Assembly: GCA_027031765.1 (NCBI GenBank)
Contig: JALVPN010000077.1
Coordinates: 1 to 32,000, forward strand
Direction: 5' to 3'
DNA length: 32,000 nucleotides
DNA from: Promethearchaeota archaeon
GTDB taxonomy: Archaea; Asgardarchaeota; Thorarchaeia; Thorarchaeales; Thorarchaeaceae
The notes beneath the pieces are model-generated. The model was not told the origin of the DNA, made no database searches, and saw only the letters and a program-made list of their open reading frames with translations. Both the position numbers and the translations under genes were made by a program. Each line of letters starts with the position of its first letter. Position 1 is the stretch's first letter. Shown in pieces: positions 24,151-25,365 of this stretch.

Positions 24151-25365
24151 TCAGGCGGTCATGAGCACGCACGCGGATATGCGCTGGTAGAACTCACTTG
24201 CAGCGGTCTGGAGCACTTCAGGGGCGTCAGACATCGTGTGTATTTGCAGCTGACACTTCTTCGAGACCAGGTCACCGACCATCAGGACATGGAGGACGAC
24301 CTTCAGTCCCGTATAGCTACCTGTGCCAGCGGCCTTCAGGGATGCCATCAAGACACTGCTTTCACGACGGGTCTTGCAGTCGAAGGTGTGGAGGTTGCAC
24401 CTGTCGAGCATGTCCCTGATGGCCTCGAACATCGTCACGGGGTCTACAGGCACCTCGTGCTCACGACTCCACCCCTTCATGGCCCGCAGGAGAGTGGCCT
24501 CTTCAGATGGCGAGATGTTGAGTGGTTCCAGCCGCTCGAAAAATGTCCGGACGGTGCAGTTCCCCGCAGGTGCAGACGCCCGCTGGCCGTCGACATCTGT
24601 GAACACCACCAGCGGGACAATCTCTCCCTCTATGCACTCGCGTGTCGCTGACATCTCAAACGTGACAGACCGTGCCTCTCCAGGTCCAATACGTGGGACT
24701 GTCCGCACAGTGCCATCGACCGGTCTCAGGCTGTCGGCCGGGTAGGCGAGCAGGCGTACGTCCACGTCAGTGATTGGGCCCTGCGTGTCATTCGACACCC
24801 GGATCCTGAAGGTGACAGTCCCATCATTGACTGAGAGCTCGTTTGAGACTGAAACATCCATCCTCGTCCGGATGGGCACGGGGTCTAAGGACATGGGCGC
24901 GGCAGGCTGGGAAACTGCTGTGGAAACGACCACCTGTGGGCGCTGACTCCCGGGTGTCCCCTGAGTGTGAGAATGGAGCACGGCCCACTCGTGTGCATAC
25001 TCAGCTGCCTGCACTACCATCTCCAGAGGGTCGTCTTGGGCCAAGGCGAGGGTGTCCGACACCCCACTGGGGTCGATGGTGGTGAGGAAGACAAGGGCTG
25101 CTGCGCGTACCTCTCCGGTGTCGTCATGACAGGCAATCTCAAGGCCCCCAATGGCCTCGGGCCCAAACTCAGCAAGCCGACATACAGCAAGGAGCCGGGT
25201 CTCAGGCTCGCCCGCGAGAGATGCGTCCTTGCATGCCTGTAGAGACCTCAAGCCCGACAGCATACGCGAGAGAGGGGGGTCAGACTCCTCAAGAAAGAGG
25301 GCCCGTCGTAGGCGTGAGAGGATGCCGCCAGAGTCATCAGGTGTGTTCTCCATGCCCGGACTCAT
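24151..25365 (-). CDS. HEAT-repeat + Pro/Ser/Gln hinge + Ig-like sandwich + alpha/beta platform protein (adaptin/coatomer appendage-like)
   Basis: HEAT-like repeats at aa ~50-128 (ETRLLAVCRLAEFG, EVRAAALVFL), a low-complexity linker at aa ~131-165 and an Ig-like region at aa ~168-273 (FRIRVSNDTQGPITDV...IGPGEARSVTF). The C-terminal mixed alpha/beta region begins LEPLNISPSEE. The CDS is secure. The appendage call is pattern-based. Confidence 0.65.
   Translation of the reverse strand: MSPGMENTPDDSGGILSRLRRALFLEESDPPLSRMLSGLRSLQACKDASLAGEPETRLLAVCRLAEFGPEAIGGLEIACHDDTGEVRAAALVFLTTIDPSGVSDTLALAQDDPLEMVVQAAEYAHEWAVLHSHTQGTPGSQRPQVVVSTAVSQPAAPMSLDPVPIRTRMDVSVSNELSVNDGTVTFRIRVSNDTQGPITDVDVRLLAYPADSLRPVDGTVRTVPRIGPGEARSVTFEMSATRECIEGEIVPLVVFTDVDGQRASAPAGNCTVRTFFERLEPLNISPSEEATLLRAMKGWSREHEVPVDPVTMFEAIRDMLDRCNLHTFDCKTRRESSVLMASLKAAGTGSYTGLKVVLHVLMVGDLVSKKCQLQIHTMSDAPEVLQTAASEFYQRISACVLMTA

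Follow-up and report, generated by a model that had tools for sequence, protein, structure and literature searches.

A HEAT–hinge–appendage protein encoded in the Thor-Rab locus of a Thorarchaeial archaeon

In eukaryotic vesicle-coat adaptors, the appendage domains, or "ears", act as hubs of interaction. Does an archaeal protein that carries helical repeats, a hinge and an ear in a single chain belong to the ancestry of these adaptors, or did it come to the same layout by another route? The question is raised by a gene on the minus strand at positions 24151–25365 of the 32,000-nucleotide stretch analyzed here (the window; positions 1 to 32,000 of contig JALVPN010000077.1, assembly GCA_027031765.1), which comes from a Promethearchaeota archaeon of the Thorarchaeaceae. 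According to the window's list of open reading frames (ORFs) and its translation, the gene encodes a protein of 404 residues, P0001, and the 400-residue form on record corresponds to an alternative start at M5. A sequence-only reading had taken this protein for a short-trunk counterpart of the adaptin or coatomer large subunit. Full-length orthologues at 26–39% identity are present in metagenome-assembled genomes of Thorarchaeota type, labelled Thorarchaeota, "Lokiarchaeota" and Promethearchaeota, and the gene is therefore real and conserved. Domains of the AP type have been detected in Asgard archaea "not fused to each other" (Eme et al. 2023), and in the literature that we searched we found no description of a HEAT–hinge–ear fusion in the locus of the small GTPase Thor-Rab, where the P0001 gene lies.

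The AlphaFold2 (AF2) model of full-length P0001, with a mean predicted local distance difference test score (pLDDT) of 89.4, divides the protein into four parts: a basic amphipathic helix, a HEAT domain (residues 30–132), a hinge (133–165), and a two-lobed unit (166–404). Every element that had been listed from the sequence is reproduced in this model, including a C-terminal region that opens with LEPLNISPSEE and ends in a strand (355–365), a second strand (370–379) and a helix (382–403). Pfam gave two matches, both below threshold, to HEAT_2 at residues 52–124 (E 0.012) and to an NPCBM_assoc/CARDB-like Ig domain at residues 182–241 (E 0.049), and detected nothing in the last 130 residues.

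The nature of the two-lobed unit was approached through its predicted structure. Residues 166–275 (24541–24870, minus strand) form an all-beta sandwich, as had been foreseen, which AF2, the fold searches and Pfam identify as an Ig-like sandwich of the GAE/adaptin-ear type; residues 276–404 (24154–24540, minus strand) form an alpha/beta platform of the TBP-like/helix-grip kind that carries the sequence W299-x-R-E-H. The N-terminal sandwich is packed on the C-terminal platform as one unit, the arrangement that characterizes the appendage superfamily. Prediction of residues 145–404 with a 100-sequence alignment of the appendage unit (A2) gave a pLDDT of 95.6 and a predicted template-modelling score (pTM) of 0.83. 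In a Foldseek search of the PDB the first 15 rows were all appendages of beta2- and alpha-adaptin and of beta- and gamma-COP, with E-values down to 2.7e-9, and each match spanned about 245 columns and hence both lobes. In the structural comparison table, the beta-COP appendage scored 18.9 (223 residues, 3.0 Å), alpha-adaptin 16.0–16.6, beta2-adaptin 13.8 and gamma-COP 13.7, the last three again over both lobes, while the AP-4 beta platform alone scored 14.0 (119 residues, 2.7 Å); the top matches confined to one lobe were TRAP-beta for the Ig sandwich (12.6) and, for the helix-grip fold, a structure at 11.8. An ESM Atlas shape search with the appendage model led to eukaryotic beta-COP and beta-adaptin clusters at template-modelling (TM) scores of 0.64–0.65. 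The sequence-only reading had staked the appendage assignment on a platform fold and on more than generic CARDB matches; Foldseek favors adaptin and COP appendages, so the assignment stands, and on these models the C-terminal half of P0001 and the adaptin/COPI appendage are true structural homologues. A role for the C-terminal domain as a Roadblock- or longin-type GTPase regulator was also considered and rejected, as no such matches appeared in the top rows of the fold searches.

The sequence signals for an appendage are weak, but they agree in direction with the fold evidence. P0001 itself has no Pfam match to Alpha_adaptinC2, Alpha_adaptin_C, B2-adapt-app_C, COP-gamma_platf or Coatomer_b_Cpla, and its phmmer search against PDB sequences yielded azurin and fibronectin Ig matches only, at chance level. 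The A2 profile, searched against 177,635 PDB sequences, found as its top match beta-COP residues 826–882, at the junction of sandwich and platform, with a weak E-value of 0.064. When 100 family members were scanned singly, the commonest weak Pfam matches were GAE_BBS1 (10/100) and Coatomer_b_Cpla (8/100, best E 1.4e-4). A language-model search with residues 275–404 pointed to an AP4E/COP-gamma platform cluster at 0.79, which falls short of the score needed to tell signal from shuffled controls and is taken as no more than a lead.

Eukaryotic appendage platforms possess a ligand-binding motif, FxxxW (PMC2262067). Its archaeal counterpart was read from the columns that HMMER aligns to F-R-Q-M-W of beta-COP, where the canonical archaeal family has F in 71 of 89 sequences and L or I in 79 of 89, giving FxxxL/I, and the members with a HEAT N-terminus have F in 8 of 11 and R or K in 10 of 11, giving Fxxx[RK]. 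P0001 has E289 and L293 in these columns, that is, ExxxL, and since its platform lacks FxxxW, motif binding of the eukaryotic type is not to be assumed. The W299-x-R-E-H sequence of the platform is invariant in the HEAT-type subfamily and was gained by the HEAT-type clade. W299 was examined as a candidate equivalent of the FxxxW tryptophan and set aside: HMMER aligns it to a second, downstream tryptophan of beta-COP, and no functional equivalence is claimed.

Comparison with beta-COP (PDB 9qpq chain H, 5a1u chain G) shows how far the likeness extends. Its appendage, whose weak sequence match covers the sandwich/platform junction and includes the F of FxxxW, is C-terminal and follows a helical-repeat region, as in P0001. 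However, the two are only about 10% identical; the archaeal family has L for the W of the motif, and P0001 has E for its F; beta-COP has an Adaptin_N trunk upstream where P0001 has about 100 residues of PBS-type HEAT; and no heterotetrameric partners are evident for P0001 among the window ORFs scanned. The appendages of AP-2 alpha- and beta2-adaptin (PDB 1b9k, 3hs8, 1e42, 2iv9) and the AP-4 beta platform (2mj7) are likewise close known systems, although the platform ligand motif is not conserved in P0001 and binding of DPF/FxDxF-type peptides cannot be inferred.

The region that would correspond to the adaptin trunk is of a different kind. The helical domain of residues 30–132 (24970–25278, minus strand), delimited by Pfam, AF2 and profile search, consists of six helices modelled at pLDDT 90–98, a capping hairpin followed by two 31-residue repeats of the PBS/alphaRep-type HEAT_2 class, in line with the two to three HEAT-like repeats seen earlier. 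The cap, SLQACKDASL, is specific to the subfamily, and S41, Q43, C45, K46 and D47 are near-invariant among orthologues. A profile of the orthologues' N-terminal 140 residues, searched against PDB chains, matched artificial alphaRep proteins (E 2.6e-29), YibA (E 3.8e-7) and MTH187 (E 0.016). No chain of adaptin, coatomer or karyopherin type appeared up to an E-value of 10. The design of the artificial alphaRep proteins is based on a prokaryotic PBS-lyase-type HEAT consensus. All language-model neighbors of the HEAT part were bacterial HEAT_2 clusters, with a score of 0.93. An Adaptin_N-type alpha-solenoid trunk spans about 500–600 residues, whereas P0001 has about 100 residues of helices that Pfam assigns to HEAT_2 only. 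The alphaRep-type profile matches, together with the presence of just two repeats, identify the "trunk" of P0001 as a HEAT module of the ordinary prokaryotic kind, with one-sixth the length of an adaptin trunk. It shares its 31-residue repeat with PBS-lyase/alphaRep HEAT_2 proteins such as MTH187, YibA and the artificial alphaRep binders, from which it differs in having only two repeats and the SLQACKDASL cap and in being joined to a hinge and an appendage. The appendage, hinge and HEAT domain of the short-trunk adaptin/coatomer reading are thus real, but the trunk is not adaptin-like.

Between the HEAT domain and the appendage, residues 133–165 (24871–24969, minus strand) form the Pro/Ser/Gln-rich hinge, recognized from the sequence at the outset and disordered in the AF2 model, where residues 136–161 have a pLDDT below 50; its length and sequence vary among orthologues. 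A disordered hinge between trunk and appendage is a feature of the adaptin family that P0001 possesses, but at about 33 residues it is shorter than eukaryotic hinges (about 100 residues in AP-2), and no conserved clathrin-box-like motif was found in it among P0001 orthologues. At the other end of the chain, a basic amphipathic helix containing the sequence GILSRLRRALF (residues ~13–26; 25288–25329, minus strand) was delimited by AF2, orthologue alignment and hydrophobic moment. The amphipathic N-terminus proposed earlier is thus a helix in the model, at low confidence, and its pattern is kept across orthologues: in 7 of 10 no other 14-mer has a higher hydrophobic moment than this segment, and in 8 of 10 its net charge is +4 to +6, the exceptions being P0001 (+1) and P0011 (+2). 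It is possible that the helix serves as a membrane or partner anchor.

How P0001 relates to other archaeal proteins was addressed by phmmer against 1.8 billion representatives, in which 189 clusters shared residues ~150–400 as one unit. E-values from 1e-38 to 1e-10 were obtained with more than 100 of these family clusters, the similarity extending over both subdomains, and N192, P209, G247, N324 and G364 are invariant residues common to P0001 and the family. As a rule, the module forms the C-terminal end of a long protein. In about half of 50 members examined a transmembrane helix is predicted no more than 90 residues upstream of the module, and in 34 of the 50 a CxxC...CxxC zinc ribbon follows it; the N-termini are of many unrelated types, including SBBP or PQQ propellers, NosD/beta-helix, LRR, PKD and solute-binding domains. 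Judged from these sequences, the usual layout would be that of a single-pass protein, one domain lying outside and the ear in the cytoplasm next to the membrane. P0001 has no predicted transmembrane helix and no C-terminal zinc ribbon, its chain stopping with the final helix of the platform.

Archaeal "adaptin (TRAP-beta) appendage" proteins composed of IG and TBP domains (arCOG15284) were described by Makarova et al. (2024, mBio, PMC10936438), with an HHpred probability of 98 to beta-COP (5NZR_B), and appendage domains as such are therefore not new in archaea. The module family is probably the same as arCOG15284, the two having been matched by description rather than by sequence. The proteins described there carry zinc-ribbon and transmembrane-linked GOLD fusions and, in Asgard archaea, Vps28-C and longin fusions (PMC10936438). 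Their IG + TBP region resembles that of P0001, and their zinc ribbon and transmembrane linker to extracellular or luminal-type domains recur in the relatives of P0001; the P0001 subfamily differs in having lost the zinc ribbon and the conserved cysteines, in having HEAT and hinge instead, and in the position of the gene, which lies in a Rab-like GTPase/WD40/Roadblock locus where no genes of the ESCRT endosomal sorting machinery were found. The source genome also holds one canonical soluble appendage paralogue of 654 residues (locus L008; genome G000, contig C112:1390-3354, minus strand), in which five or six zinc-ribbon-like CxxC...C/H repeats are followed by a Glu/Pro-rich linker, the Ig + platform module and a C-terminal CxxC...CxxC ribbon, and which keeps the conserved cysteines of the module family. 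Separately, a Promethearchaeota cluster in the ESM Atlas labelled DDRGK / E3 UFM1-ligase / PCI (788 residues) contains a region like the appendage model (TM score 0.49 by query), a structural likeness that raises the possibility of an ear domain in a UFM1-ligase-like Asgard protein.

Of 201 genomes that sample the phylum, 88 have the module: 41 of 43 in the family of P0001 itself, 35 of 40 in family f9, 5 of 5 in f16 and 3 of 3 in f24. In many other families of this sample no copy was detected; the occurrence of the module outside the phylum is known from ESM Atlas cluster labels (Thermoplasmatota, Methanobacteriota) and from the literature. The HEAT N-terminus is far more restricted, occurring once per genome in 24 of the 43 genomes of the Thorarchaeial family (7 of its 16 genera, the window's own included) and in none of 157 genomes from the phylum's other 26 families. 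In the module tree the HEAT-type rows and two N-terminally truncated fragments form a single clade on a long branch, with a support of 100 in the Shimodaira–Hasegawa-like approximate likelihood-ratio test (SH-aLRT), and this clade has lost the family's conserved cysteines and zinc ribbon. The distribution, the clade, its losses and gains of residues and the prokaryotic type of the HEAT repeats suggest a lineage-specific fusion that converged on the trunk–hinge–ear order, not a relic of an adaptin ancestor; the HEAT–hinge–ear architecture is most likely convergent and lineage-restricted.

These data bear directly on the alternative that P0001 is a direct relative, reduced or ancestral, of the AP/COPI large subunits, a coat adaptor recruited by a GTPase and covered by WD40 as the outer coat, whose trunk, hinge and appendage would have been passed down as one. 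The domain order of adaptor large subunits, the true appendage homologue, the Rab-like GTPases and WD40 propeller that adjoin the gene, and its divergent transcription with the WD40 gene in all orthologue loci would all accord with such an origin. We nonetheless regard it as highly improbable, given a HEAT domain of PBS/alphaRep HEAT_2 type with no Adaptin_N or coatomer signal and about 100 rather than about 600 residues, a fusion confined to part of one family, an appendage module joined elsewhere to many unrelated N-termini, and a locus that exists without the P0001 gene in sister genera. Sigma- and mu-type subunit genes, sought as Clat_adaptor_s and mu-homology matches, were not found among the window ORFs scanned, the rest of the genome not having been searched for them. 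In place of the trunk of the miniature adaptin/coatomer large subunit that the sequence-only reading had seen, there is thus a HEAT module of PBS-lyase/alphaRep type.

Although the appendage family is widespread, the setting of the P0001 gene is particular. The window reads, in order, Ras1 (plus strand), P0001 (minus), WD40 (plus), Ras2 (minus), Roadblock (plus), a thioredoxin (Trx)/KaiB-like gene and two KaiC-like genes (plus). Ras1 (23406–24044, plus strand) encodes a Rab-like small GTPase, is convergent with the P0001 gene, and probably has its true start about 24 codons downstream of the ORF start. The WD40 gene (25612–26742, plus strand), divergent from the P0001 gene, encodes a propeller protein whose C-terminus is a conserved helical tail; its ORF is open from 25507, 35 codons upstream, and orthologues start at M36. 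Ras2 (26759–27295, minus strand) encodes a Rab-like GTPase that matches crystallized Thor-Rab (PDB 7EZB) with an E-value of 8.7e-89 over 174 residues and is its orthologue. Crystal structures of Thor-Rab (7EZB, 7EZD, 7EZE) and its GTPase activity were reported by Tran et al. (2024, PMC10933270), who do not discuss the neighboring genes. The domain scan identified a Roadblock/LC7 (MglB-like) protein at 27570–27950 (plus strand).

The order and orientation of Ras1, P0001, WD40, Ras2 and Roadblock are the same in the five of seven orthologue loci whose contigs span the arrangement; the other two, L003 and L005, lie on short contigs that show part of it and agree as far as they go. P0001 orthologues in the seven loci are 29–37% identical, compared with 50–58% for WD40 and 75–86% for Ras1, so that P0001 evolves much faster than both. 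All 16 genera of the family have an orthologue of WD40. The P0001 gene is thus an accessory to this conserved GTPase locus, in which it takes up a fixed slot. A tree of concatenated WD40, Ras2, Ras1 and Roadblock sequences from six loci with the gene and five without is star-like, with one well-supported inner branch, and therefore does not separate a single gain of the gene from several losses. Complex prediction for P0001 and WD40 (alignments A3 and A6) gave 0.35, 0.00 and 0.00 in its runs, which were made without controls and count neither for nor against a contact.

With folds, family membership, distribution and locus established in this way, we favor, at a probability of about 0.6, a reading in which P0001 is a soluble cytoplasmic scaffold: a true appendage homologue that became part of an adaptor-like fusion in one lineage and would act as a membrane-proximal interaction hub. 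The theme common to the family would be an ear kept near the cytoplasmic face of the membrane; in the Thorarchaeial subfamily, the transmembrane tether and zinc ribbon would have been replaced by an amphipathic helix, HEAT repeats and a hinge, an exchange that suggests reversible, and possibly regulated, placement of the ear. P0001 would then be accessory to the Rab-like GTPase/WD40/Thor-Rab/Roadblock locus, as a peripheral hub linking this module to other proteins. The HEAT domain, with its well-conserved cap, would be the likeliest end to bind a GTPase or other partner, and the WxREH surface of the platform may be the ligand site that the ear presents to partner proteins.

Several observations weigh against this scaffold reading. 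Within P0001, helix 15–24 (GILSRLRRAL) is modelled at a pLDDT of only 52–60 and is less amphipathic than its counterparts in orthologues, and the platform has ExxxL in place of FxxxW. Outside it, the other archaeal appendage proteins are all tied to ESCRT loci, Vps4/ESCRT-III neighborhoods among them, and not to GTPases (PMC10936438). P0001 might accordingly be an ESCRT-0-like hub for cargo or partners whose place in a GTPase locus is incidental, since it is a clear sequence relative of appendage modules of that kind, which include the Asgard Vps28-C and longin fusions. Yet neither the scanned ORFs of the window nor the seven orthologue loci gave a Vps4, ESCRT-III, Vps28-C or steadiness-box domain, and the HEAT-type clade stands apart on a long branch, having lost the family's cysteines and zinc ribbon; a link to ESCRT-dependent sorting is, on balance, unlikely.

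The locus itself provides the remaining counter-evidence. Five sister genera that lack the gene have the array PolB-Ras1-WD40-Ras2-Roadblock-Trx-KaiC, in which WD40 follows directly on Ras1, so that P0001 is dispensable to the GTPase module. Moreover, the unrelated flanking genes PolB, LarC, CofE and DUF2114 are equally syntenic, and conservation of the whole region weakens the case for deriving shared function from neighborhood. The gene context to which the sequence-only reading had pointed is thus real as regards the GTPase and WD40 neighbors, but the Rab/WD40/Roadblock locus is unchanged where the gene is absent. A locus that is complete without the gene, and the rapid divergence of P0001 relative to WD40 and Ras1, are what would be expected if P0001 acted independently of its neighbors, or if its platform were a helix-grip (Bet v 1/SRPBCC-like) pocket for lipids or small molecules and the adaptor-like order had no mechanistic meaning. 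We consider this unlikely, as the gene is always found in the same Ras1–WD40 slot across deep divergence.

A bolder extension of the scaffold reading is a minimal archaeal adaptor, in which the GTP form of Ras1 or Thor-Rab would recruit the HEAT domain, the helix would dock on the membrane, and the appendage would recruit WD40 or other partners. We hold this to be improbable. If true, it would represent a GTPase-controlled, coat-like membrane assembly that either arose independently of eukaryotic AP/COPI or preceded it.

Other features of the locus were noted in the course of the analysis. The conserved neighbors of Thor-Rab are the WD40 protein, Roadblock and a second Rab-like GTPase. The helical tail of the WD40 protein is about 75 residues long, and its last segment, KRVFY.MWQCK.ALGLLKG, is near-invariant among orthologues that are 52–58% identical overall; its sequence makes it a likely interaction or membrane-binding element. 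From 27570 to 30024 (plus strand) the Roadblock, thioredoxin/KaiB-like and two KaiC-like ATPase genes follow one another closely in the same orientation, and may constitute a Roadblock-KaiB/KaiC operon beside Thor-Rab. The Roadblock-Trx/KaiB-KaiC order is kept in 9 of 12 related loci, with and without the HEAT-appendage gene; locus L006 is cut off within the first KaiC-like gene, and neither L003 nor L005 extends to these genes. In orthologous loci a small DUF8156 gene (87–90 residues) lies directly upstream of the family-B DNA polymerase, and the 166-residue ORF with a GTG start at 22849–23349 (minus strand) is probably this gene with a later start. Further upstream, the stretch 12647–19138 (plus strand) holds in one orientation a MetF-C-like gene, two genes for MtrH, and those for MtrA, DUF2114 (methanogenesis marker 14) and CofE; no membrane Mtr subunits were found among the ORFs scanned.

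Because an adaptor-like domain order can arise by convergence, architecture alone is not proof of ancestry in eukaryotic trafficking, and the restricted distribution and prokaryotic HEAT type of P0001 call for caution on this point. What P0001 shows is that an Asgard lineage built the full solenoid–hinge–ear layout in one chain, within a locus whose other products include two Rab-like GTPases, one of them crystallized Thor-Rab (7EZB), together with a WD40 propeller and a Roadblock protein. These proteins form a small, soluble and recombinantly tractable set with which to test whether Asgard GTPases recruit adaptor-like effectors, and to ask which ligands archaeal ears bind.

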